This document shows, in pieces, positions 20,542-41,880 of a DNA stretch of 59,670 bases. The position numbers were made by a program, and so were the translations under genes. Origin of the DNA: an uncultured Acidimicrobium sp. (lineage in GTDB: Bacteria; Actinomycetota; Acidimicrobiia; Acidimicrobiales; Ilumatobacteraceae); the NCBI GenBank assembly GCA_964532575.1, contig CAZHIN010000001.1, positions 21,294 through 80,963 of the forward strand. Reading direction: 5' to 3'. How positions within the stretch are numbered: the stretch's first letter is position 1; each line of letters starts with the position of its first letter. The notes beneath the pieces were generated by a model. It ran no database searches and had not been told where the DNA came from. It was given only the letters and a program-made list of their open reading frames with translations.

Positions 20542-21039
20542 ATGCGAAGCGCGCTGGTATTAAATGCAACATACGAGCCGCTGAGTGTTGTCTCAGCGCG
20601 ACGCGCTGTGTGTTTAGTGTTGTCGGAGAAAGCCGAGATCATTGAAGACGATGGAACGCAAATCCATTCGGAGACAATGAGTATTCCTGGTCCGCTCGTG
20701 ATTCGACTGCGCTACATGGTCAAGGTTCCGTATCATCGTCGCACAGCGCTCTCTCGCCGTGCGGTGTTTGCTCGAGATGATCACCGCTGTCAATATTGCG
20801 GCGGAGTCGCTGACTCGATTGATCATGTGATGCCACGCTCGCGCGGGGGTATGCATATTTGGGAAAATGTGACGGCTGCATGTCGCCCGTGCAACTTGCG
20901 CAAGCGCGACAGAACTCCTGAAGAGGCAGGAATGCTGCTGGAGTCACAGCCTCTTGCACCGCGCGAATTGGCGTGGATCACTGTGTCGGTGGGACGTGTG
21001 CCCGACGAGTGGAAGCAGTATCTTGCCGCTGCATCCTGA
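20542..21039 (+). CDS. HNH endonuclease family protein
   Basis: 165 aa. CQYCGG...IDHVMPRSRGG...WENVTAACRPCNLRK (HNH/Zn motif). Confidence 0.85.
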   Translation: MRSALVLNATYEPLSVVSARRAVCLVLSEKAEIIEDDGTQIHSETMSIPGPLVIRLRYMVKVPYHRRTALSRRAVFARDDHRCQYCGGVADSIDHVMPRSRGGMHIWENVTAACRPCNLRKRDRTPEEAGMLLESQPLAPRELAWITVSVGRVPDEWKQYLAAAS

Positions 21040-24145: not shown

Positions 24146-26073
24146 GCGTCGTAGCCGGCGGTCGCGGTGGGCGAGTGCCTACGACACGTGTGCAGCCACG
24201 ACAAAAATCTCGACAAAACTCTCGACAGCAAGCACGAAAAAGCCACACTGCTGCCGATGTGGTGCGGGAGCGCGCTCGAACTTCGGTCACTTCCTTCTAC
24301 ACCAATCTGCAAGGTGGCAAAATTCGCTTTCGACTTGTTGCCATGTATGTGTTCGTTTCGCTGTTGTTGATCACGATGCTTGTTCGCGTTTCGTACCTGC
24401 AAACAGTTGGTGCAAGTGGATATCGCGACGCAAGCGTGAGTCAACGAACTCGAATTTCAACTGACTTCGCAGAGCGTGGTTCGATCCTCGATCGAAACGG
24501 ACTCGAGCTGGCGCTTCCAGTGCCTACACGCACCGTTTTCGCTGATCCTCGAATTATTGTTGACCCAGTCGCGACTGCACATGCCATCGCTGGTGTGTTG
24601 GGATTGTCGCCTGAAGATGAGTTGGTGTTGGCGAGCAAATTGCAAAATACGGCTTCAAGTTTTGTCTATATCGCACGACAGGCAAGCAAAGAAGTTTCGG
24701 ATGCTCTGACCGGGCTCGGTCTTGCTGGAATCTCGTCGTATGCCGAGCAAAGCCGAACGCTCACGTCCGATGGCTTGCGTGCTCTTGTTGGCCGCACCGA
24801 TATTGACGGGGTGGGTATCTCTGGTCTGGAAGAGCAGTTTGATGAGTTGCTGGGCGGTGTTGATGGCCGAACCGTGCGCGAAGTCAATAGCAAGGGGCAA
24901 TCGATACCGACTGGGGATGATGCCAGTCAGGTTGCAGTACCGGGTCAAGATTTAGTGACAACGATTGATCGCAACATTCAGTTTCAGGTAGATGCAATTG
25001 TTACCCAACAGATCACCCGTCTCAATGCTCGCGGAGGTGCTGCGATCGTGATGGACTCGACGACTGGCGAAATTTATGCGATGTCAACTATTCGCAAAAA
25101 TACCGATGGCACGTATACCGCAGACTCTGGCAACTTCGCAGCAGTTGATGCGTATGAGCCAGGATCGGTAGCAAAAGTATTCAGTATCTCTGCTGCACTC
25201 AACGAAGGGACGGTTGAACCCAACTCGGTATTCAAGGTTCCAGGTAAGCAGTCATTCAACGAAGGAACTCAATGGGTGCACTCGATTACCGATGCGTTTC
25301 CACACGGACTTGAAGCAATGACCGTGCGCAAGATCATCGTCGATTCGTCAAACCTTGGCACCGTGCAAATTGCACAAACGATGCCGGCCGAGACGCTCTA
25401 TAACTATCTGCACGAGTATGGGTTCGGTACCAAGACTGACGTCAATTACCCGGGCGAGAGCAAAGGGTTATTGAAACCGTTTGATCAGTTGCGAGGAACT
25501 GAAAAAATTACGACAGCCTATGGCTATGGTTATTCGGCAAGTGCACTGCAGTTAATTGCAGGTGTCAATGTGGTTGCCAATAATGGTGTCTATGTAGCGC
25601 CTCGTCTTGTAAATTCGGTAATCGACCTAAACGGCATCAATCAGCCAACTGCGCCTTCTGCCACCCATACGGTGATCAAACCAGAAGTGGCGGCAACAAT
25701 GCGCTCGCTGATGAGTGACGTCGTGTGTTTTGGAACTGCGTCGCTCGCAAAGGTGAATGGAATGACCGTGGCCGGTAAAACTGGCACGGGGTACAAGCGC
25801 CAAGACAACGGCACATATGTGAAGGACGATGGATCTCGCGCATACTTCGCATCATTTGTTGGATTCTTGCCAGCAGAAAATCCACGCTTCACCGTGTTGG
25901 TGTCGATCGACGAACCAGATCCTGCATCGCGCGATCGCTTCGGTGGCACGGCGGCTGCGCCAGTGTTTGCAAATATCGCTCAAGTACTGATCAATGAACT
26001 TGATATTCGTCCCGCAGCAACAGACATGGGTTGTCCAAAACAACGCCCTGCCGAGTTGGGGCCAGCGCACTAG
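24142..26073 (+). CDS. ftsI: Penicillin-binding protein (class B transpeptidase, FtsI/PBP3-like)
   Basis: 643 aa. N-terminal TM, PBP dimerisation region, SxxK (GSVAK), SxN (SSN), KTG (GKTGTG). Confidence 0.92.
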   Translation: MSVVAGGRGGRVPTTRVQPRQKSRQNSRQQARKSHTAADVVRERARTSVTSFYTNLQGGKIRFRLVAMYVFVSLLLITMLVRVSYLQTVGASGYRDASVSQRTRISTDFAERGSILDRNGLELALPVPTRTVFADPRIIVDPVATAHAIAGVLGLSPEDELVLASKLQNTASSFVYIARQASKEVSDALTGLGLAGISSYAEQSRTLTSDGLRALVGRTDIDGVGISGLEEQFDELLGGVDGRTVREVNSKGQSIPTGDDASQVAVPGQDLVTTIDRNIQFQVDAIVTQQITRLNARGGAAIVMDSTTGEIYAMSTIRKNTDGTYTADSGNFAAVDAYEPGSVAKVFSISAALNEGTVEPNSVFKVPGKQSFNEGTQWVHSITDAFPHGLEAMTVRKIIVDSSNLGTVQIAQTMPAETLYNYLHEYGFGTKTDVNYPGESKGLLKPFDQLRGTEKITTAYGYGYSASALQLIAGVNVVANNGVYVAPRLVNSVIDLNGINQPTAPSATHTVIKPEVAATMRSLMSDVVCFGTASLAKVNGMTVAGKTGTGYKRQDNGTYVKDDGSRAYFASFVGFLPAENPRFTVLVSIDEPDPASRDRFGGTAAAPVFANIAQVLINELDIRPAATDMGCPKQRPAELGPAH

Positions 26074-26075
26074 TG

Positions 26076-27533
26076 ATGAAGGCGACGACGAATACGGTCG
26101 CGCCTGTAGCGCTTGGCGCACTGCTCGAATCAACATTTGTCGGGCAGCTGCCGGGTGTGATGTACACCTCGGTTGGCTCGCTTGATGTATTGGTCAACGA
26201 CATCACCAATGATTCAAAACAAGTAGGGCGTGGCGCGTTGTATTGCTGTGTGGTGGGTGACAGCACCGACGGACATGATTTTGCTGAAGAGGCACTGAAT
26301 GCAGGTGCAGTCGCATTGTTGGTAGAGCGTGCATTGTCCATCGATTGCCCACAGGTAATCGTGAGTGATAGTCGTCGCGCAATGGGCGAGATTGCGGCGG
26401 CTTTTTACGATTATCCAAGTACAAAGATGCGTGTTGTGGGTATTACAGGCACAAACGGCAAAACGACAACTGCGCATCTGTTGGGCGCGATCTTTCGTCA
26501 GCAGGGTATAAAAACTGAAGTATTCGGAACTCTCTCGGGAGCGAGAACGACACCAGAATCGTGCGATTTGCAAAGAAATTTGTGGCTAGCAGCCAACGCC
26601 GGAGTTGGGGCTGTGGTGATGGAAGTGACTTCGCATGCACTTGCTTTGCAACGCATTGTGGGGACGCAATTTGCTGCTGTGGTGTTTCTTAATCTTTCGC
26701 CCGAGCATTTGGATTTTCATAAAACGCTTGAACAATATTTTGCGGCAAAGGCAACACTGTTTGACCGACGGTTTGCAAACTTGGCAATCGTGAATCGTGA
26801 TGATGTGCATGGGCAATTGCTGCTGGATGCAGTGGAAATTGACACCGTAAGTTTTGGGTTGAGCGATGTAGACAAGGTTGAGGTAACTCCCACTAGTCAT
26901 TCGTATGTTTGGCACAACAAGACCGTGCAGGTTGCCCTTGGTGGAAAATTTAATGTTGCAAATTCGCTTGCTGCCGCCACTGTGGCAGCCAGTCTTGGAG
27001 TCGACGTTGTCGACATCATTGCAGGACTGGCTGCTGCAGGAACGGTTGCTGGTCGGTATCAATCGGTATCTACCAACATTCCGTTTGATGTGATTGTTGA
27101 CTACGCACACACTCCGGATGCGCTCAGTCGTGTGTTGGAGAGCACGAGAGAAGTGATCTCGCAAGGAGGAAAAATAATTTTGGTGTTTGGCTGTGGTGGC
27201 GATCGCGACACAACAAAGCGTGCGATGATGGGCAAGGTCGCAGCACTTGGTGCCGACCGTGTCATTGTTACATCAGACAATCCTCGGTCAGAAGAACCCT
27301 CTGACATCGCTCAGCAGATTACTTCTGGGATCGATAATGAAGTGGGCCGATCGCATGTAAGTGTCGAGTTGGATCGACGATCTGCAATAGAATTGGCATT
27401 AATGACAGCCAGAAAGGGTGATGTCGTGATCATCGCTGGCAAGGGTCATGAAACAACCCAAACCATTGGCAATCAGGTGCTGCCATTTAATGATGCACAA
27501 GTTGCCAACGAACTGATAGGTGCGCTCTCGTGA
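26076..27533 (+). CDS. murE: UDP-MurNAc-L-Ala-D-Glu:meso-diaminopimelate ligase
   Basis: Mur ligase P-loop GITGTNGKTTT and a DNPR motif (TSDNPRSE) typical of DAP-adding MurE. ATG 26076 (or GTG 26073) lies right at the ftsI stop. Confidence 0.93.
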   Translation: MKATTNTVAPVALGALLESTFVGQLPGVMYTSVGSLDVLVNDITNDSKQVGRGALYCCVVGDSTDGHDFAEEALNAGAVALLVERALSIDCPQVIVSDSRRAMGEIAAAFYDYPSTKMRVVGITGTNGKTTTAHLLGAIFRQQGIKTEVFGTLSGARTTPESCDLQRNLWLAANAGVGAVVMEVTSHALALQRIVGTQFAAVVFLNLSPEHLDFHKTLEQYFAAKATLFDRRFANLAIVNRDDVHGQLLLDAVEIDTVSFGLSDVDKVEVTPTSHSYVWHNKTVQVALGGKFNVANSLAAATVAASLGVDVVDIIAGLAAAGTVAGRYQSVSTNIPFDVIVDYAHTPDALSRVLESTREVISQGGKIILVFGCGGDRDTTKRAMMGKVAALGADRVIVTSDNPRSEEPSDIAQQITSGIDNEVGRSHVSVELDRRSAIELALMTARKGDVVIIAGKGHETTQTIGNQVLPFNDAQVANELIGALS

Positions 27534-28579
27534 TTCCAATTTTCATTGCAGGTTCAATCGGCATGATCGTGTCACTGATAGGCACGCGAGCGTTGATGGT
27601 GGTCTTTGCTCGACTGGGCAAAGGTCAGCCAATTCTTGGCGCAGAGGATCACGGGCCAGTGCATCAGATGGGCAAGCAGGGCACCCCAACTATGGGCGGT
27701 ATCGCCATATTGTTTGCGGGAGCGATTGGTTGGACCGTCGCGCATGTGCGGGCGGGTCTGCCATTTTCTGATCAGGCCGCAATTATCTGGCTCACCGTTT
27801 TTGTGCTTGGTGCGATTGGGTTTCTTGATGACTTCTTGAAAGTGCGTCGCCAACATAATCGTGGAATTTTTTGGAAGAAAAAAGGTTGGATCACATTTGG
27901 TATCACGCTGTTGTTGCTGTGGCTGTTGTCGAGCACAACCGGTGTTGTCGAAACTATTTCGTTCACGCGAGCAACGAGCCCTGGTTGGGATATCACTGGA
28001 CCTATCTTTATTGTGTGGACTGCCGTCATGGTGTGGAGCACGACAAACGCTGTCAACGTGACAGATGGTTTAGACGGGTTGGCCGCGGGTTCTGCACTGT
28101 TTGGTTTCTTGGCGTTTACCGTGATTGCCTATTGGGCGTTTCGTAACCCGCGTATTTACGACATTGTCAACCCGCTCGATCTGGCAGTGTTGTCGGCTGC
28201 ACTAGCAGGTGCGTGCGCAGGATTTTTGTGGTGGAATGCAGCGCCAGCCAGAATCTTTATGGGAGACGTTGGTGCGCTTGGCCTCGGTGCAGCATTGGGC
28301 ATGCTCGCGGTCACAACCAACACTCATTTGCTGTTACCAATCGTGTGTGGAATCAACGTGATTGAGGCTGGTTCGGTTGCCGTACAGATGGGTGTGTTCA
28401 AGGCCTCTGGTCGCAAGCGTCGTTTGTTCAAGATGTCGCCGATCCATCATCATTTTGAGTTAAGTGGTTGGCCTGAAACAACGGTGATTATTCGTTTTTG
28501 GATTATTTCCGGAATATGTGTGGCAACTGCAGTTGCGATTTTCATTGCCGACTTTACGCGTCAGGCTGGTTTGCGTTGA
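27530..28579 (+). CDS. mraY: Phospho-N-acetylmuramoyl-pentapeptide transferase
   Basis: 349 aa, polytopic. NAVNVTDGLDGLAAG, MGDVGALGLG, HHHFE motifs. The GTG start overlaps the murE stop. Confidence 0.95.
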   Translation: MIPIFIAGSIGMIVSLIGTRALMVVFARLGKGQPILGAEDHGPVHQMGKQGTPTMGGIAILFAGAIGWTVAHVRAGLPFSDQAAIIWLTVFVLGAIGFLDDFLKVRRQHNRGIFWKKKGWITFGITLLLLWLLSSTTGVVETISFTRATSPGWDITGPIFIVWTAVMVWSTTNAVNVTDGLDGLAAGSALFGFLAFTVIAYWAFRNPRIYDIVNPLDLAVLSAALAGACAGFLWWNAAPARIFMGDVGALGLGAALGMLAVTTNTHLLLPIVCGINVIEAGSVAVQMGVFKASGRKRRLFKMSPIHHHFELSGWPETTVIIRFWIISGICVATAVAIFIADFTRQAGLR

Positions 28580-31137: not shown

Positions 31138-32289
31138 ATGGTTGCCCCTGCCCCTACGACTTATGCCGTTATTACGGGGGGCGCAACAAGTGGTCACGTA
31201 ATTCCCGCCCTGGCGATTGTTGAACTGTTGATCGAAGCAGGACACGGCTCTGAAACACTCGTTTTCGTTGGCTCTGATCGCGGTGTTGAAACATCGTTAG
31301 TTCCGCCGACTGGCATTGCGTGTGTATTTTTGAGCGTTGACGGATTTCAACGCGGTGTGAGTTTTGCCAAGATCAAGCGCAATCTGCGAATGCTGCCCAC
31401 CATGATGCGCGCGACTCAAATGGCAACACAGTTTTTAGTTCAAAACAGACCGCGAGTAGTTGTTTCGGTGGGCGGCTATGTGAGTGTTCCTATTTGTCGT
31501 GCGGCTCGCCATCTCAACATTCCGGTTGTCACGTGTTCGTATGACAGCAAGCCCGGTTTGGCTACAAAGATGCAGGCCAGGTATGCATCGGCAGTTGCGG
31601 TGGCCCACATGCCAAGCACGTTGCGCCGTGCACAACTCACCGGTGCTCCAGTGCGCTCCGAGTTGCGAATGCTCAATCGAGATGCTGGTCGTGTTGCTGC
31701 TCGAACTCGCCTCGGATTTGGCGCTGACGTAAAACTTGTAGTCGTGATGGGCGGATCGCTTGGATCTGCGGTGTTAAACAGCGCAACCGAGAGTCTTGTT
31801 CTGCAGTTGGAGACTGCGAGGCTTGCAAATGTTGCGGTGCTACACATTGCCGGATCTCGGTATATGGATGATCAGCGTTTGCCGAGTGTGCTCAAACGAA
31901 ATGACGGCGCGATGATCTACAAACGCATTGCCTATAGCGACCAAATGTGCGATGTCTATGCAGCAGCAGATTTGGTGGTGGCGCGGGCTGGGGCGTCAAC
32001 AGTGGCCGAAATTGCGACTGTGGGAATTGCTTCGATATTGGTGCCATGGAAAGATGCGGCGGAAAATCATCAGCTCATCAACGCGAGGTCGTTGAGTGAC
32101 ACCGGCGGTGCAGTGTTGCATGAAGAAGCGCAACTGAGCAATGAAGGCTTTTTGCAACTGATCGGCGATTTGCTGAGCGATGATGCAAAACGCGAACAGA
32201 TTGCGCGCGAAGCGAGAAACCTTGGTGATGTGCATCGCAAGTGTTCTCTCGCATCAGTGGTTGATGCAGTAGCAAGGGCATCAGTGTGA
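31138..32289 (+). CDS. murG: UDP-GlcNAc:lipid I GlcNAc transferase
   Basis: GGATSGHVIPALA N-terminal motif; GT28 C-terminal domain (ARAGASTVAEI). Confidence 0.92.
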   Translation: MVAPAPTTYAVITGGATSGHVIPALAIVELLIEAGHGSETLVFVGSDRGVETSLVPPTGIACVFLSVDGFQRGVSFAKIKRNLRMLPTMMRATQMATQFLVQNRPRVVVSVGGYVSVPICRAARHLNIPVVTCSYDSKPGLATKMQARYASAVAVAHMPSTLRRAQLTGAPVRSELRMLNRDAGRVAARTRLGFGADVKLVVVMGGSLGSAVLNSATESLVLQLETARLANVAVLHIAGSRYMDDQRLPSVLKRNDGAMIYKRIAYSDQMCDVYAAADLVVARAGASTVAEIATVGIASILVPWKDAAENHQLINARSLSDTGGAVLHEEAQLSNEGFLQLIGDLLSDDAKREQIAREARNLGDVHRKCSLASVVDAVARASV

Positions 32290-33722
32290 TGGGTGTCGGT
32301 CCATTTTTTGATCTGAGCAGGCCGCGCCGTATTCATGTCGTTGGCATCGGCGGGCCTGGCATGAATGCCATCGCTCAGGTGTTGTGCGAAATGGGTCATC
32401 AGGTATCGGGAAGCGACATTCATGAATCTGGCGTGCTCGATCGTTTGCGCGCACTTGGCGTCAGTATTTTTGTCGGACACGACGCTGCCGCCGTCACAAA
32501 CTGTGAAGCAGTGACTGCCTCAACAGCTATTCCCGCGAACAATATTGAACTCGTTGCCGCAACAGCGCAGTCGATACCTGTACTGAGCCGAGCCAACATG
32601 CTGAGCGCAATTTGTGCTCTCAAGCAGTCGGTTGCGGTGGCTGGCACCCATGGCAAGACAACAACTTCAGCAATGTTGATGCACATCTTGGCTGTTGCCG
32701 GACAACACCCAAGTTTTGTGATTGGCGGTGACGTACATGGTCTCGAGTTAGGTGCTGGCTGGCGCAATGGAAAGATACTTGTGGTTGAAGCAGACGAAAG
32801 CGATTCGACGCACTTGGCGTTGCCGCTGCACGCAACTATTTTGACCAATATTGATGTTGATCACCTTGATCATTTTGAAACTTTTGACAAAATTGTTGCG
32901 AGCTTTGAAGAGTATTTGCACAAGATTGCTGGGCCAAAGGTGCTGTGCGCCGATGACGCAGTGTGCGAACGAATTGCGGCGTCTCTTGCGTGTTGCACCT
33001 ATGGCATGGGCGATAATTGCGATGTACGCGCAATCAATGTGGTGCTCGCAGATGGCGCAAGTCATTTTGATATTGAGTTGCGACCTGCTGGTTCAGTACG
33101 TGATCGTGTTGCTGCAGGGTCAGTCACGGTTCCATTGCGGGGCGAGCACAACGTGCTCAATGCCACGGCGGCTCTTGCAATGGCAATGGAGTTGGGTGTT
33201 GCTTTTGGGGTTGCCTCTCAAGCGTTGAGTAGTTTTCGCGGTGTCGCTCGACGCTTCGATGTGCGGGGTGTTGATGATGGAGTGACATTTGTAGATGACT
33301 ATGCGCATCTGCCAAACGAGATTATTGCGGTGTTGCGTGGGGCGCGTGATGCAACTGATACTTGGCGTCGGGTGGTCGCTGTCTTTCAACCCAATCGTTT
33401 TAATCGGATGAGCGTGATGTCTGCTGCTTATGCAGATGCTTTTGCGGATGCGGATGTGGTTGTAGTTACTGACATCTATTCGTCGGGTACCACTCCCATA
33501 CCTGGCGTAACTGGCAAACTTGTTGTCGATGCAGTCAAGATCAATCATCCAGACAAGAACATTGAATGGATCGCGCAACGGAAAGAACTTGTGAGTTTCC
33601 TGGCTACGTCACTGATCAGCGGCGACCTGTGTATTTCGATGGGCTGTGGTGACGTTGCTCAACTTCCGAACGAAGTGATGTTGATGCGACAGAACAATCG
33701 CACCAGCAAAGTGCGCAAGTAA
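32286..33722 (+). CDS. murC: UDP-N-acetylmuramate:L-alanine ligase
   Basis: HVVGIGGPGMNAIAQVL and GTHGKTTTSAM motifs. The start overlaps the murG stop. Confidence 0.93.
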   Translation: MMGVGPFFDLSRPRRIHVVGIGGPGMNAIAQVLCEMGHQVSGSDIHESGVLDRLRALGVSIFVGHDAAAVTNCEAVTASTAIPANNIELVAATAQSIPVLSRANMLSAICALKQSVAVAGTHGKTTTSAMLMHILAVAGQHPSFVIGGDVHGLELGAGWRNGKILVVEADESDSTHLALPLHATILTNIDVDHLDHFETFDKIVASFEEYLHKIAGPKVLCADDAVCERIAASLACCTYGMGDNCDVRAINVVLADGASHFDIELRPAGSVRDRVAAGSVTVPLRGEHNVLNATAALAMAMELGVAFGVASQALSSFRGVARRFDVRGVDDGVTFVDDYAHLPNEIIAVLRGARDATDTWRRVVAVFQPNRFNRMSVMSAAYADAFADADVVVVTDIYSSGTTPIPGVTGKLVVDAVKINHPDKNIEWIAQRKELVSFLATSLISGDLCISMGCGDVAQLPNEVMLMRQNNRTSKVRK

Positions 33723-33729
33723 TAGCGCG

Positions 33730-35970
33730 ATGAACACTCCTCGATTATCCAAGCGTCCTGCAACCGCTGCAGAGGTGCAACTTGCAACAGAATTGTTGGC
33801 AAAACGTGCCCGCACCAATGTGTCGCTCGCACAATTTACGACTTACCGGGTGGGCGGCAACGCTGCGCTACACGTGCATGTTGAATCGTTGGATGATCTC
33901 GAGGCGATCAGCGCAGTGTTGGCACAGGTTGATCTGCCGCTCTTGGTTATTGGGCGAGGAAGCAACATGTTGATTGCCGACACTGGGTTTCAAGGTTTGG
34001 CAATTACTTTTGGCAGCTTTTTGGAATACATCGATCTGCCCGACCCGCACGACGACGATCAGGACGGAATTGTTGTTGAGCCAATTGCGCTGTTTGGTGG
34101 ATCGGTACCGTTGCCCGTAGCCGCTCGCCAAAGTGTTCACCGCGGATTGACAGGTTTTGAATGGGGCGTTGGTGTTCCGGGCACGATTGGCGGTGCAGTG
34201 CGCATGAATGCTGGCGGTCATGGCTCGGACATGGCTTCGTCACTTGTTTCGGCCCGAATTTTTCATCTGTTGCGGGGTGTTGAAGCTCATGTGGATGCCG
34301 TGGATCTTGGTCTGAGGTTTAGAGGTTCGGCAATCGCCGATCATCACGTGGTCTTGTCGGCGACACTCAATTTGGCTTGGGCGTCCGATCGCCAGGCTGC
34401 AGAAAATCAGTTGTCAGAGATCGTCAAGTGGCGCAGAGAAAATCAACCCGGTGGTCAAAATGCTGGATCGGTGTTCGTTAATCCAGTGCCTGGCGAGGTT
34501 TCTGCAGGTGCATTGATCGATCAGATTGGGATGCGTGGATTTCGCATTGGATCGGCACATGTCTCGGAGAAGCATGCCAACTTTATTCAAGCAGATGAAG
34601 GCGGTTTGGCATCGGATGTAGTGCAGGTAATGGCAGAAATTCGTCGTCGGGTCAAAGACTCAACGGGGTACGACTTGCGAAGCGAGATTCGACTTGCAGG
34701 TTTTGATGCTGCGATGGATCCAACGCTGATCGATGTACTGACCAGCGAATCGGATACAAGCGTGGCAACAGTGCGGCTCGAACATATTTTTGATCGCAAC
34801 TCAAGTACATCGATTGTTTCAGACACATCAATTCCAATCTCGATCTTGTCGTCTCCCGATTTTCAAGACCCGCTAGATGTGCCAACAGAAGTGCTTGATG
34901 AGTTGAGCGCGGTGTTCAGTGATGAGACATCTACAACACAAGAGCAACCGGTGATTGCTTCAGTAACCGACATAAAAACCAGAGAAGTAATGATGCCACT
35001 CGAGACGTCAGACAAGACGCACGCGGGCACGTCAACGAGCGCACCTAGTCGTGTAGTGATTATTGACGAGGACTTTCGTAATCCATCGGAAAGTGATTTT
35101 CCATCGGACACTGCTTCGCAATCGGTTCATCAAGCCCCGACTTCGGTGCGCGTTCTGATCACTGATGATGATGTAGCACAAGATCAGGATGCCGAAATTA
35201 TCGTTGGTACGCGATGGAGTGATGGAAGTAAATCGCGCAAAATACAAAATTTGCTCAAGGGCAAGCTGGTGGGTGGCAATAAGCGCAAGCGTTTTGTACT
35301 GGCAGTTTTGGGTTTCGTTGTTTTTGTTGGTGTTGTACTCGTTGTTTTGGCGTCGCCACTCGTTGCAGTAAGAACCGTGCAAGTTGAGGGCGCGAAATAT
35401 GCAGATGCTGCATTGGTGCGAAGTGTTTCCGACTCGCTCAAGGGCAAGTCGGTATTGACAGTTGATACGAATACTGCTCGCGAGAGATTGGAGAGCGACC
35501 CGTGGGTAAAGTCGGCGCGGATCTCGACAAGTTTGCCAAGTCGGGTATTGATCCAGATCAACGAGCGCATTCCTGTGGCGTGGTTTCTTGGCGTCGACAA
35601 TCGGGCACGCGTGATTGATGAAGATGGACTGGTGCTCAGTGTTGTTGAAGGTCGACCAACCCAGTACATGTGGATTGAGGGGACAGGACCCAATTTGACG
35701 GCGGGGGCGAGCTCGGCTGCTGGCTACCGGGCGGCTGGCCAACTGGCGATGTCATTGCCAAGCGAACTTGCGCCAATGGTCAAACATCTTGGAGTGGCAG
35801 GGTCTGAGCAGATTACGATGACCCTCAAAAATGGCACTGTTATCAACTTTGGGGCTCCTGTTGATATGCGCAACAAACTCGTCAATGTGGTGGTTTTACT
35901 GCGCCGTCAAGATGTCAATTCAATCATCAGCATCGATGTCTCTACGGGGACCCCAGTGGTGCAGTCATAA
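33730..35970 (+). CDS. murB: Fusion protein: UDP-N-acetylenolpyruvoylglucosamine reductase (MurB) - long disordered linker - TM - FtsQ/DivIB (POTRA) domain
   Basis: A single uninterrupted 746-codon ORF. aa ~20-325 is MurB (YRVGGNA, VIGRGSNML, GTIGGAVRMNAG, NAGSVFVNP, SAGALIDQIGMRGFRIGSAHVSEKHANF). aa ~326-520 is acidic and Ser/Thr-rich. aa ~521-545 is a TM helix. aa ~546-746 is a POTRA/FtsQ-like domain in the slot just before ftsZ. Confidence 0.85.
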   Translation: MNTPRLSKRPATAAEVQLATELLAKRARTNVSLAQFTTYRVGGNAALHVHVESLDDLEAISAVLAQVDLPLLVIGRGSNMLIADTGFQGLAITFGSFLEYIDLPDPHDDDQDGIVVEPIALFGGSVPLPVAARQSVHRGLTGFEWGVGVPGTIGGAVRMNAGGHGSDMASSLVSARIFHLLRGVEAHVDAVDLGLRFRGSAIADHHVVLSATLNLAWASDRQAAENQLSEIVKWRRENQPGGQNAGSVFVNPVPGEVSAGALIDQIGMRGFRIGSAHVSEKHANFIQADEGGLASDVVQVMAEIRRRVKDSTGYDLRSEIRLAGFDAAMDPTLIDVLTSESDTSVATVRLEHIFDRNSSTSIVSDTSIPISILSSPDFQDPLDVPTEVLDELSAVFSDETSTTQEQPVIASVTDIKTREVMMPLETSDKTHAGTSTSAPSRVVIIDEDFRNPSESDFPSDTASQSVHQAPTSVRVLITDDDVAQDQDAEIIVGTRWSDGSKSRKIQNLLKGKLVGGNKRKRFVLAVLGFVVFVGVVLVVLASPLVAVRTVQVEGAKYADAALVRSVSDSLKGKSVLTVDTNTARERLESDPWVKSARISTSLPSRVLIQINERIPVAWFLGVDNRARVIDEDGLVLSVVEGRPTQYMWIEGTGPNLTAGASSAAGYRAAGQLAMSLPSELAPMVKHLGVAGSEQITMTLKNGTVINFGAPVDMRNKLVNVVVLLRRQDVNSIISIDVSTGTPVVQS

Positions 35971-36103: not shown

Positions 36104-37204
36104 ATGGCTGGTGCACCACAAAACTTTTTGGCGGTTATCAAAGTAATTGGAGTGGGCGGGGCTGGCGTTAACGCCATTAATCGCATGATCGACTCCAATT
36201 TGCGAGGCGTCGAATTTGTGGCGGTAAACACCGATGCACAGGCATTGTTGATGAGCGATGCCGATTTCAAGATCGATATTGGTCGCGAAATTACACGCGG
36301 TCTCGGAGCAGGTAGTGACCCAGCAATTGGTCAAGATGCCGCAGAGGCAAGTCGCAGCGACATTGAAGAGATCGTCAGTGGCGCAGACATGGTATTCATT
36401 ACCGCTGGCGAAGGTGGTGGTACCGGAACTGGTGCAGCGCCAATCATTGCCGAGATCGCTCGCGCTGCTGGTGCTTTAACTGTTGGCATCGTCACACGCC
36501 CATTTGGTTTTGAAGGTCGTCGGCGTGCCATGCAAGCCGAAGCCGGTATCGCTAAGTTGCGCGACAAAGTTGACACTCTGATCATTATTCCGAACGAAAG
36601 ATTGTTGTCAGTTGCCACTGAAAAGACGAGTTTGCTCGATGCCTTTAAGCGCGCCGACGAGGTGCTGTTGCAAGGCGTTGCGGGTATTACCAACTTGATC
36701 ACGACGCCAGGACTGATCAATACCGACTTTGCAGACGTCAAAATGATCTTGACAAATGCTGGTACTGCCCTGATGGGAACAGGCAAAGCCAAGGGCGACA
36801 ACCGTGCAATTGCGGCCGCTACTGCTGCAATCAACTCGCCATTGCTCGAGTCGTCCATTGAGGGAGCGCGTGGAATTTTGCTCAACATCACTGGCCCATC
36901 CGACATGGGCTTGTTCGAACTCAATGCCGCAGCCGAGATCGTGCACGCTGTTGCTCATCAGGATGCAAACATTATTTTTGGCACGGTGATCAACGACGAA
37001 CTTGAAGACGAAGTACAAGTGACAGTGATCGCAGCCGGTTTTGATCGCTCCGATTTGGGAGCGACACGATCTACTGTTCGTGGTGACGGTCGTGATGCGC
37101 GGGGCGAACAGCGCGGTAGCCGAATCAAAGAGTTGTTCGGCTCGGGTGAAGACCCATTGCGCGATTCATCCGACGGCTTTGACGTACCAGACTTTTTAAA
37201 GTAG
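36104..37204 (+). CDS. ftsZ: Cell division GTPase FtsZ
   Basis: [13 protein letters not shown], tubulin signature [11 protein letters not shown]-terminal peptide DVPDFLK. An AGGAGG SD lies upstream. Confidence 0.98.
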
Positions 37205-38781: not shown

Positions 38782-39261
38782 GTGACATATCCAAAGGTTG
38801 ATCCTCAACCGAACTTTCCGGCACTCGAAAACGAGACGCTCGCTTTCTGGGCTGCTGACGGCACCTTTCAGGCGTCCATCGATCAACGTGACGCTGGCAA
38901 AAATGGTGAGAACGAATATGTCTTTTATGATGGGCCGCCGTTTGCCAACGGCTTGCCACACTATGGTCACTTGCTCACCGGGTTTGTTAAAGATGCGGTT
39001 CCCCGATATCAAACGATGCAGGGCAAGCGAGTCGAGCGTCGTTTCGGATGGGATTGCCACGGGTTGCCAGCCGAGGCAGAAGCAGAGCGTCAATTAGAAA
39101 TTTCTGGCCGACAAGCGATCACCGATTTTGGTATCGACAAATTTAATCAGTACTGCAAAGAGTCGGTGCTGCGCTACACCAGCGACTGGGAGCGATATGT
39201 AACGCGTCAGGCCAGGTGGGTTGACTTTGCTATGGATTACAAAACTCTCGAGGTGTCGTAA
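38782..39261 (+). CDS. ileS: Isoleucyl-tRNA synthetase, N-terminal fragment (159 codons, ends at an in-frame TAA)
   Basis: Type-2 IleS N-terminus with the HIGH motif ([13 protein letters not shown]). It is in the same reading frame as the next ORF, separated only by TAA at 39259-39261. Confidence 0.85.
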
Positions 39262-41880
39262 ATGGAAAGTGTGATGTGGGCATTTAAGACACTGTGGGAC
39301 AAGGGTTTGATTTACGAAGGGTTTCGTGTGTTGCCATATTCGTGGGCACTCGAGACGCCATTATCCAATACCGAAACGCGGATGGACGATGCCTACAAGC
39401 AGGTGCAAGACCCGGCATTGACCGTTGCATTTGTACTTGAAACTGGCGAATCGTTGTTGGCGTGGACGACGACGCCGTGGACATTGCCGAGCAACCTTGC
39501 ACTTGCGGTTGCTCCTGATGTGAGTTATGTGCGAGTGCGTCATAACGGAACTGTGTACCTGTTGGCCGAAGCACGACTTGGTGCATATGAAAAGGAATTA
39601 GAAGGCGCCGAGGTGCTTGACACCGTGCTTGGATCGGCATTAGTCGGTCGCACATACACGCCGATGTTCTCGTACTTTGCCGATCAGCCTGGCGCGTTTC
39701 GGGTGATCGCAGGAGATTTTGTAACAACCGAGGATGGCACTGGAGTTGTGCATCTTGCGCCGGGCTTTGGCGAAGACGACCAACGCGTGTGCAGTGAAAA
39801 CGGTATTGGGCTTGTGGTGCCGGTTGACAGTCGCGGATTATTTACGAGCGAAGTGCCCGACTTTCAAGGGATGTTGGTGTTTGATGCCAACCCGTTGATT
39901 ATTCGCGAACTGAAATCACGCGCAGTGGTGTTGCGTCACGAAACATACGACCACGCTTATCCACATTGTTGGCGTACCGGAAAGCCGCTGATCTATAAAG
40001 CGGTGAGCTCGTGGTTTGTCAATGTGACGGCTGTAAAAGAGCGCATGGTTGCATTGAATGAGCAGATCACGTGGGTGCCCGAGCACCTGCAACACGGAAG
40101 TTTTGGTAAGTGGCTCGAGAACGCGCGCGATTGGACAATTAGTCGCAACCGCTTTTGGGGTTCACCAATTCCGGTGTGGCGCAGCGATGACCCTGCCTAT
40201 CCGCGCATCGATGTGTATGGCAGTCTTGCCGAACTTGAGCGCGATTTTGGTGTCACGGTGACCGAACTGCATCGTCCTGTTGTTGATGACTTGGTGCGTG
40301 CGAACCCGGACGACCCAACAGGCAAGTCAATGATGCGCAGAGTGCCCGAAGTGCTCGACTGTTGGTTTGAGAGCGGATCAATGCCGTTTGCGCAAGTGCA
40401 TTATCCATTTGAAAATCAGGAATGGTTTGATCAGCACTATCCAGGCGACTTCATTGTTGAATACATCGGTCAGACGCGTGGCTGGTTCTACACGTTGCAC
40501 GTGTTGGCTACAGCGTTGTTTGATCGTCCCGCTTTTTCAACATGTGTCAGCCACGGAATTGTGTTAGGTGACGATGGTGCGAAGATGTCAAAGAGTCTGC
40601 GCAACTATCCAGACCCGATGAATGTGTTCGATACCTATGGCGCTGATGCAATGCGTTGGTATCTGCTTTCGTCTTCAATTTTGCGTGGATCAGATTTTGC
40701 AGTGACCGAAGAGGGTATTCGCGACACTGTGCGACAGGTGATGCTGCCATTGTGGAACAGCTGGTATTTTTTATCGCTCTATGCCAACGCAGAGTCAATG
40801 ACTGGAGAAGTGCGCTACGACTCGACAAACGTGATGGACAGATACGTGTTTTCGAAATTGAAGCGTTTGATTGAAGACACAACCGTGTCAATGGACCAAT
40901 ACGACATTTTTAGTGCGTGTCAGCAAGTGCGATCGTTTTTGGATGTGTTGACCAACTGGTACATACGTCGCAGTCGCGATCGTTTTTGGAAAGGCGACAA
41001 AGATGCGATTGACACATTGCACACGGTGTTGCACGTGCTTACGCGCATTGCCGCGCCGCTGCTGCCATTAACAACAGAAAAGATTTATAAAGAACTCACG
41101 GGCGAGAGAAGCGTGCACCTTGAGGATTGGCCTGACGCGAGCATCGTGCCATCTGACAACCAACTAGAAGTGGTGATGGATCAAGTGCGCGATGTATGTT
41201 CGACAACGTTGTCGTTGCGCAAAGTGCACTCGCGCCGTGTGCGTCTGCCACTTGCCGAACTTACTGTTGCTTCGCCACTGGCCAATGCATTGCAATCTTT
41301 CGTCTCAATCATCACCGATGAAGTCAACGTGCATCACGTGACGCTGACAACCGAACTTGGAAAAGTAGCCAAGCATGAATTGCAATTAATTCCTGCTGCG
41401 CTCGGGCCTCGCCTTGGCGCAAACACGCAAAAAGTGATTGTGGCGGTGAAGAAAGGTGATTGGTCGATAAATGGTGACGAGGTGATCGCCGGCGGCGTTG
41501 CACTCGAGCCACATGAGTTTCAGGTGAAATTGGTGGCCGCTGTTGGTGACACCGACTCGGTAGCAAGTGCAGCCTTGGCTGACGGTCAGGGAATTGTGTT
41601 GCTCGATATTGAATTGACCGAAGCATTGTTGGCCGAGGGCGCTGCTCGAGACATTGTGCGAATGGTGCAACAGGCTCGGCGAGAAGCAGGGTTGGCGGTT
41701 TCCGATCGCATTGTGCTCACTCTGGGATTGTCGGCGTTGCTGCAGTCGCAAGTTTCCCAATTTGAGACATATATCGCTTCTGAGACCCTGGCACAGCGGA
41801 TTGAGTGGGTTTCAGGCCTCGAGCCAACTGGAGATTTGGACGGGAATCCCGTCCATATAGGTGTCGATCAAGTACGGTAA
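39262..41880 (+). CDS. ileS: Isoleucyl-tRNA synthetase, remainder (872 codons: CP1 editing, KMSKS, anticodon-binding domains)
   Basis: Begins MESVMWAFKTLWDKGLIYEGFRVLPYSW, contains KMSKS (GAKMSKSL). Together with the upstream fragment it gives about 1032 aa, the normal type-2 IleS length. Confidence 0.9.
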   Translation: MESVMWAFKTLWDKGLIYEGFRVLPYSWALETPLSNTETRMDDAYKQVQDPALTVAFVLETGESLLAWTTTPWTLPSNLALAVAPDVSYVRVRHNGTVYLLAEARLGAYEKELEGAEVLDTVLGSALVGRTYTPMFSYFADQPGAFRVIAGDFVTTEDGTGVVHLAPGFGEDDQRVCSENGIGLVVPVDSRGLFTSEVPDFQGMLVFDANPLIIRELKSRAVVLRHETYDHAYPHCWRTGKPLIYKAVSSWFVNVTAVKERMVALNEQITWVPEHLQHGSFGKWLENARDWTISRNRFWGSPIPVWRSDDPAYPRIDVYGSLAELERDFGVTVTELHRPVVDDLVRANPDDPTGKSMMRRVPEVLDCWFESGSMPFAQVHYPFENQEWFDQHYPGDFIVEYIGQTRGWFYTLHVLATALFDRPAFSTCVSHGIVLGDDGAKMSKSLRNYPDPMNVFDTYGADAMRWYLLSSSILRGSDFAVTEEGIRDTVRQVMLPLWNSWYFLSLYANAESMTGEVRYDSTNVMDRYVFSKLKRLIEDTTVSMDQYDIFSACQQVRSFLDVLTNWYIRRSRDRFWKGDKDAIDTLHTVLHVLTRIAAPLLPLTTEKIYKELTGERSVHLEDWPDASIVPSDNQLEVVMDQVRDVCSTTLSLRKVHSRRVRLPLAELTVASPLANALQSFVSIITDEVNVHHVTLTTELGKVAKHELQLIPAALGPRLGANTQKVIVAVKKGDWSINGDEVIAGGVALEPHEFQVKLVAAVGDTDSVASAALADGQGIVLLDIELTEALLAEGAARDIVRMVQQARREAGLAVSDRIVLTLGLSALLQSQVSQFETYIASETLAQRIEWVSGLEPTGDLDGNPVHIGVDQVR

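Follow-up and report, generated by a model that had tools for sequence, protein, structure and literature searches.

A MurB-FtsQ fusion fixed in one freshwater clade of Ilumatobacteraceae

A single reading frame for MurB and FtsQ

We analyzed a 59,670-nt stretch of DNA (hereafter, the window) from an uncultured Acidimicrobium sp. of the Ilumatobacteraceae (contig CAZHIN010000001.1, positions 21,294 to 80,963). In its cluster of genes for division and the cell wall (dcw cluster), murB and ftsQ form one open reading frame (ORF) at 33730-35970 on the plus strand, as are the parts of this ORF given below and its neighbors murC and ftsZ. The fusion is genuine and fixed in evolution, not an artifact. 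Its product is most likely a single bifunctional, bitopic polypeptide, in which the enzyme forming UDP-N-acetylmuramic acid (UDP-MurNAc) is tethered to the membrane through a divisome protein. An earlier reading of the letters alone (the sequence-only reading) had described one continuous frame of 746 codons, and the ORF list bore this out: 746 codons plus a stop, an ATG start and no in-frame stop. The parts named there, i.e., a MurB domain, an acidic Ser/Thr-rich segment, a transmembrane (TM) helix and a POTRA/FtsQ-type domain ending before ftsZ, were all recovered where it had placed them.

The protein was searched against 5.8 billion proteins, and the cluster figures cover the best 120 clusters. 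One entry (P0001) was identical to the window protein. At least 120 clusters, originating from ENA, JGI, NCBI and Logan, contained MurB together with POTRA in proteins of 741-762 aa that were all 86-100% identical. In a scan of relatives with one genome per GTDB species, matches came only from metagenome-assembled genomes of Acidimicrobiia/Ilumatobacteraceae from lakes, rivers and brackish water, several of them labelled acIV. Sixty-nine fetched loci held both domains. In 30 of these, one unbroken frame ran from MurB through FtsQ, and the MurB part was 59-92% identical to that of the window. In the remaining 39, with MurB 51-58% identical, murB had its own stop and ftsQ was a separate gene, shifted to a different frame everywhere except at L062. 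The sequence-only reading would have fallen with a stop or a frameshift in the linker of close relatives; none occurred, as all 30 species-level genomes of the fused clade holding both domains kept the ORF continuous. Together with the continuous metagenome clusters, this speaks for a true fusion and not a missed stop.

Several contigs broke within the linker, between aa 380 and 513 in window numbering. Five (L006, L008, L018, L029, L032) ended there with the frame still open, and two (L036, L037) started there. These breaks, and the length spread of 741-762 aa among near-identical clusters, suggest strain-level linker indels that disrupt short-read assembly.

A separate HMMER scan covered 1.84 billion representative proteins, and 150 matches were listed. 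Among the matches listed, only three full-length fusion clusters stood at the top (P0121-P0123), with P0149 lower. The latter (691 aa, 42% identical, MurB and POTRA) was considered as an independent fusion in a high-GC actinobacterium and rejected, since its sole contig, L081 (ENA ERZ25039504 contig_39674; 215 kb, 75% GC, actinobacterial), is full of frameshifts. In L081, each of murD, ftsW, murG and murC is broken up over two or three frames, and at the junction no frame is closed. Uncorrected indel errors of long reads typically produce such splitting; they can explain the apparent MurB-FtsQ fusion and make it untrustworthy. MurB-FtsQ fusions of independent origin in remote phyla may stand lower than the 150 matches listed.

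The MurB module

The MurB module comprised aa 20-325 (33787-34704), in agreement with the complete MurB domain claimed from the letters alone. Pfam placed FAD_binding_4 (PF01565) at aa 47-175 (33868-34254; 47.3 bits, cut-off 26.4) and MurB_C (PF02873) at aa 225-322 (34402-34695; 89.9 bits, cut-off 27). The NCBIfam model for murB, TIGR00179, matched aa 33-322 with 164.4 bits, over its cut-off of 144.5. PRK13905, also from NCBIfam, aligned over aa 20-325 with a score of 233.6, under its cut-off of 259. Solved structures of type II MurB (4pyt, 3tx1 and 1hsk) could be aligned end to end with the N-terminal 332 aa, over aa 21-324.

Arg198, Ser247, Glu319 and His282 were invariant across 28 fused proteins. 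We take the first three to be the catalytic residues, following the established MurB literature. This Arg/Ser/Glu triad was present in the conserved MurB motifs YR.S, AGS.F and E.R, aligned to 4pyt and 3tx1. The pairwise ratio of nonsynonymous to synonymous substitution rates (dN/dS) was 0.02-0.05 in the MurB region. The invariant catalytic residues and the low dN/dS mark the module, as judged from its sequence, as a probably functional MurB (UDP-N-acetylenolpyruvoylglucosamine reductase, EC 1.3.1.98), which would reduce UDP-GlcNAc-enolpyruvate in an NADPH-dependent manner.

The FtsQ module and the predicted topology

The single TM helix, aa 522-545 (FVLAVLGFVVFVGVVLVVLASPLV; 35293-35364), gave a maximum of 3.28 in a Kyte-Doolittle scan with a window of 19, and no second segment of the fused protein reached TM strength in that scan. 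The pattern VLASP[LI]VAV within the helix was conserved in the alignment of 28 fused proteins. The helix is preceded by a basic juxtamembrane stretch, aa 500-521 (35227-35292), with nine Lys/Arg and no Asp/Glu in 22 residues. Because of this charge distribution, the positive-inside rule predicts a cytoplasmic N-terminus. The protein fits a bitopic type II topology, predicted to have its N-terminus in the cytoplasm and a single TM helix directly before POTRA. The sequence-only reading had likewise counted one TM helix and placed MurB and the linker in the cytoplasm.

The extracytoplasmic FtsQ module (35365-35967) followed directly and was assigned from Pfam and solved FtsQ chains. POTRA_1 (PF08478) occupied aa 546-613 (35365-35568; 57.2 bits, cut-off 23). 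FtsQ_DivIB_C (PF03799) occupied aa 624-736 (35599-35937), where the match was marginal (23 bits against a cut-off of 21). The C-terminal 256 aa matched the solved FtsQ chains 8bh1, 2vh1, 6h9n and 5z2w over aa 84-228 of that fragment. The NCBIfam FtsQ equivalog PRK05529 scored only 69.9 against a cut-off of 353. The gene position is that of ftsQ, within the dcw cluster and just upstream of ftsZ; the ORF ends 133 nt ahead of ftsZ, and the sequence-only reading had the POTRA/FtsQ-type domain end just before that gene. As an FtsQ/DivIB, the module would be expected to form a complex with FtsL and FtsB (DivIC) and to localize to the septum. Pairwise dN/dS in the FtsQ region was 0.02-0.05.

The linker as an FtsQ tail

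MurB and the membrane helix are joined by a cytoplasmic segment of 194 aa, aa 326-519 (34705-35286), defined by its composition, dN/dS and a hidden Markov model (HMM). Its isoelectric point is 4.29, Asp and Glu (34) outnumber Lys and Arg (16), and Ser and Thr make up 24.7%. The length and composition given by the sequence-only reading (about 195 aa, acidic, Ser/Thr-rich) were thus correct. Its description as a linker can be refined: the segment is the ancestral N-terminal cytoplasmic tail of FtsQ and no new spacer. We conclude this because it has motifs in common with unfused FtsQ and because an HMM built from the fused linkers matched, among 3358 six-frame control fragments, only the N-terminal tails of stand-alone FtsQ. 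These unfused tails are about 60-260 aa long and carry DVPxxVL[DE]ELxxAF near the start (L043, L046, L059, L063, L077, L078 and others).

Three conserved elements were located in the tail. Motif 1, VATVRLEHIF (aa 345-354; 34762-34791), occurs as LExxF or LDxxFG across the clade and is invariant in close relatives. Motif 2, LDVPTEVLDELSAVF (aa 382-396; 34873-34917), corresponds to the acidic motif DVPxxVL[DE]ELxxAF of unfused FtsQ and is also conserved in the 28-protein alignment of the fused clade. Block 3, RVVIIDEDFRNPSESDFPSDTASQSVHQAPTSVRV (aa 441-475; 35050-35154), spans about 35 residues with the consensus R+VI+D..+R....+P.D...+V+.APTS in both fused subclades, or more fully R[VI]VI[VI]D[ED]xLRxPxxxxFPxDxxSQSV[HN]xAPTS. 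It lies inside the HMM region that matched unfused FtsQ tails and was detectable in some of them. The blocks common to both fused subclades were LExxF, DxS[IL]P, VLxELxxAF, block 3 and the basic juxtamembrane stretch.

Among fused loci the linker was 159-215 aa long, and its length changes were all in frame. Its pairwise dN/dS was 0.05-0.2. The entire ORF, linker included, is under purifying selection as coding sequence. The linker is probably largely disordered. Speculatively, DVPxxVL[DE]ELxxAF could serve to dock a partner from the divisome. The DVP core of motif 2 loosely resembles the C-terminal peptide of the window FtsZ.

Single origin and the fusion junction

A five-marker neighbor-joining tree was built from MurG, MurC, the MurB domain, the FtsQ domain and FtsZ (60 taxa, 1635 columns). 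In this tree, the fused loci were monophyletic with a bootstrap of 100/100, and their sister was the unfused L077. They also formed one clade in the FtsZ tree. A neighbor-joining tree of murC only did not recover the fused clade and was superseded by the other two. The trees indicate that the fusion is limited to one Ilumatobacteraceae (freshwater acIV) clade and arose once. Fused loci had a mean GC content of 52% and unfused loci one of 64%; the 2.02 Mb of one fused-clade genome lie on a single contig (DAIODP010000001.1). Isolates of acIV obtained through dilution to extinction exist (PMC8353197) and may or may not belong to the fused clade.

The junction corresponds to aa 326-335, DAAMDPTLID (34705-34734), where the unfused relatives have a murB TGA overlapping the ftsQ start. 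The murB stop was TGA in 38 of the 39 unfused loci, and the ftsQ start codon lay at most 5 nt from it in 33, either as ATGA/GTGA (18), ATGnnTGA-type (13) or TGATG (2). An overlap of this kind is the usual signature of translational coupling. Since the murB stop and the ftsQ start overlap or abut, a shift of one or two bases suffices to merge the frames. The exact base gained or lost could not be reconstructed, as the junctions of the fused clade and of its sister L077 were too diverged. Met329 (AAMDPTL), in the junction region, was considered as a retained ftsQ start and rejected, being not conserved in the fused relatives.

Other fusions were seen in the family. The sister lineage L077 encodes a MurG-MurC-MurB triple fusion (P0127, 1187 aa, L077:3077-6640) followed by a separate ftsQ, and a second such protein is P0148 (1198 aa). 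In addition to FAD_binding_4 and MurB_C, the triple-fusion ORF contains the N- and C-terminal domains of GT28 and three Mur-ligase domains. In other relatives, MurC and MurB share an ORF of about 800 aa (P0130 and others). Ilumatobacteraceae are evidently prone to dcw fusions.

Alternative explanations

A sequencing or assembly artifact, i.e., a missed stop or a frameshift error joining two genes in the window, is extremely improbable, given that the same architecture recurs in at least 120 independent protein clusters, drawn from four data sources, and in the genomes of 30 representative species, in which MurB can be as little as 59% identical. An artifact would also not account for linker indels that are always in frame in a segment under purifying selection. 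What speaks for caution is the distant P0149/L081, best explained by indel errors, and the window ileS, which has a private in-frame TAA at a Tyr invariant in 54 relatives. The fused MurB could also be other than the housekeeping enzyme, with a stand-alone murB (and perhaps ftsQ) encoded elsewhere and the fused copy redundant, regulatory or decaying. The sub-threshold PRK13905 score would fit such a copy, and the paralogue check was confined to the window. We find this improbable, as TIGR00179 is over its cut-off, the catalytic residues are invariant and dN/dS is as low as in FtsQ. Moreover, the gene occupies the canonical murC-murB-ftsQ-ftsZ position, the same as that of the only murB seen in unfused relatives, and the genomes of the clade are small, as the 2.02-Mb contig illustrates.

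A further alternative is that the one ORF gives two proteins, through internal initiation in the linker or its proteolysis, so that MurB is not tethered. A long, acidic and probably disordered segment is of the kind that proteases can reach, and ATG codons occur in the window ORF at aa 329 and 421-422. A Shine-Dalgarno sequence is missing from most of the cluster genes; non-canonical initiation is therefore frequent in this organism and difficult to dismiss on sequence grounds. On the other side, Met329 and Met421/422 are replaced by Ile, Thr, Ala or Asn in relatives. No ATG/GTG/TTG column was conserved in the linker among 28 fused sequences; the best column (18/28) consisted of Val/Leu codons in the VLDEL motif, with no Shine-Dalgarno-like sequence. 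Scanned for promoters and terminators, the interior of the ORF yielded no site exceeding chance. Had separate proteins been needed, one would expect selection to have brought back a stop and a start, yet 30 of 30 genomes keep the frame open. On balance, we consider the production of two proteins unlikely.

Several points nevertheless weigh against an intact, advantageous fusion protein. The full-length polypeptide is predicted from the sequence, and leaderless or non-canonical starts, as well as linker proteolysis, may be compatible with that sequence. With most genes in the cluster lacking a Shine-Dalgarno sequence, the corresponding test for internal initiation is weak. No second murB or ftsQ was found within the 59.7-kb window, the only stretch checked. 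AlphaFold2 modelling of the full protein gave a mean predicted local distance difference test score of 29.4 and a predicted template modelling score of 0.21 from an alignment without depth (input sequences 86-100% identical), so that neither linker disorder nor docking gained structural support. The window assembly contains at least one private nonsense change, in ileS, although the fusion is corroborated independently. Lastly, the fusion is expected to be retained even without benefit, because reverting it would take a new start as well as a new stop; conservation is therefore no proof of advantage.

Comparison with known systems

Natural Mur chimeras surveyed so far are MurE-MurF, MurC-Ddl, MurC-MurB, MurG-MurC, MurD-FtsW and MraY-MurG, with no MurB-FtsQ among them (PNAS 2023, PMC10214165). 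That survey left out sequences from unidentified species, the category to which all MurB-FtsQ sequences described here belong. The MurG-MurC-MurB triple fusion is also missing from its chimera list. No MurB-FtsQ fusion, characterized or described, was found in the searchable full-text literature, in line with the sequence-only reading, which knew of no characterized example; subscription-only papers fall outside this scope, and the absence is no proof. Public records name the fused protein only MurB. The sequences have already been deposited, and it is the fusion itself that is unrecognized and uncharacterized. Because automatic annotation calls the fused proteins only MurB, FtsQ seems to be missing from these genomes as long as the fusion is overlooked.

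MurB-FtsQ is a dcw-cluster chimera: two neighboring genes are found in one ORF across genomes, and both halves as well as the join are under purifying selection. Its closest analogue is MurD-FtsW, in which adjacent dcw genes are likewise read as one ORF and a soluble cytoplasmic enzyme of precursor synthesis is linked to a divisome protein that is integral to the membrane and is not the catalyst of the next step. The same arguments from stoichiometry and complex assembly apply to both. MurB-FtsQ differs from the Mur chimeras in that the partner of MurB is a non-enzymatic bitopic scaffold, and in that the two are joined by a conserved tail of about 190 aa instead of a short or absent linker. 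Fusion of MurB to a dcw neighbor is also seen in the MurB/MurC enzyme of Verrucomicrobium spinosum (Front Microbiol 2016, PMC4803751) and in the MurC-MurB and MurG-MurC-MurB proteins of other Ilumatobacteraceae. In these fusions, soluble enzymes are attached to MurB at its N-terminal end, whereas here the C-terminus of MurB is joined to a membrane protein.

The unfused Ilumatobacteraceae and Bacillus have the same murB-ftsQ order upstream of ftsZ, with two polypeptides there and one here. Real and Henriques reportedly found in 2006 that the adjacency of murB and divIB matters for growth and sporulation in B. subtilis. Co-transcription of murB and ftsQ occurs in B. mycoides and B. anthracis (PMC3762067). 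The order of acidic tail, TM helix, POTRA and C-terminal domain is the same in long-tailed FtsQ of Actinobacteria, and the fused clade adds a 325-aa enzyme ahead of the tail.

Proposed history and functional implications

In the history that we propose, the ancestor would have had murB and ftsQ adjacent and translationally coupled, with stop and start overlapping (ATGA type). A frame change of 1-2 nt in the ancestor shared by one freshwater clade of Ilumatobacteraceae (acIV) would have abolished the murB stop, and ribosomes would thereafter have read from MurB into the long cytoplasmic tail that FtsQ already had. The product is most likely one bifunctional bitopic membrane protein, with MurB and the tail of about 190 aa in the cytoplasm, one TM helix, and the POTRA/beta domain outside. 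MurB would be made 1:1 with FtsQ, held at the membrane, and taken to the division site when FtsQ joins the divisome. In consequence, UDP-MurNAc formation would be permanently near the membrane and septum-enriched upon recruitment of FtsQ.

Tethering of MurB to the membrane and the divisome is plausible and has precedent. We infer further that the polypeptide remains whole, that tethered MurB keeps its activity, and that its enrichment at the septum is of consequence. The tether may couple UDP-MurNAc synthesis to the septum to the benefit of the cell. A neutral, one-way fusion in compact genomes, i.e., a ratchet, fits the data equally well as a septal benefit. Tentatively, and with rather little confidence, one may go beyond tethering: MurB could be a stoichiometric, covalent subunit of the divisome, with the tail motifs (LExxF, DVPxxVLDELxxAF, RVVIVDEDLR...APTS) recruiting Mur enzymes, FtsZ or SepF, and the fusion could form the core of a membrane- and septum-bound metabolon for peptidoglycan precursors. 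If true, nature would here offer genetic evidence that cytoplasmic Mur enzymes are physically coupled to the division machinery, as has long been proposed.

It is debated whether soluble Mur enzymes are free in the cytoplasm or reside in membrane- and divisome-associated assemblies. Evidence on such assemblies has so far come from co-localization in Caulobacter, where MurB co-localizes with MurG, from pairwise interactions and from natural chimeras. A stable fusion across a diverse and ecologically dominant clade would show MurB doing its essential job while anchored via FtsQ and present in equal numbers. MurB-FtsQ is a clean, conserved natural experiment on the relationship between the Mur complex and the divisome, with a trivial mechanism of origin and a precedent in kind. 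With it, the known dcw chimeras are joined by one that pairs an enzyme with a scaffold lacking enzymatic function, and tests of tethered MurB in model bacteria gain a ready design. It also draws attention to the cytoplasmic tail of FtsQ in Actinobacteria, with its conserved and as yet unexplained motifs.

Neighboring genes

The dcw cluster of the window is complete and of the actinobacterial type, in the order mraZ, rsmH, ftsL-like, ftsI, murE, mraY, murD, ftsW, murG, murC, murB-ftsQ, ftsZ, ylmE and sepF, followed by ileS. Actinobacteria lack ftsA. Directly upstream of the fused ORF is murC (32286-33722), one of the five tree markers, with the fused ORF starting 7 nt past its stop. Directly downstream, beyond the 133-nt gap, is ftsZ (36104-37204), preceded by an AGGAGG Shine-Dalgarno sequence. 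Overlaps of 4 nt occur elsewhere in the cluster, at ftsL/ftsI, murE/mraY and murG/murC. At 26031-28579, murE (NCBIfam MurE, 487 bits) leads directly into mraY, and no murF lies between them, unlike in the canonical order (murF was looked for in this interval).

The ileS gene is split by an in-frame TAA at 39259-39261 into two ORFs, 38782-39261 and 39262-41880, in the same frame. The site is a Tyr in all 54 related loci (DYKTLD..Y*MESVMWAF). The change from TAY to TAA is private to the window: either the assembly has a base error here, or an essential gene truly carries a nonsense variant. A 165-aa ORF (20542-21039) with an HNH-nuclease region lies just upstream of the dcw cluster. In NCBIfam it best matched the HNH portions of IscB (47 bits) and Cas9d (38 bits), both far under the cut-offs, and it is probably a stand-alone HNH endonuclease.

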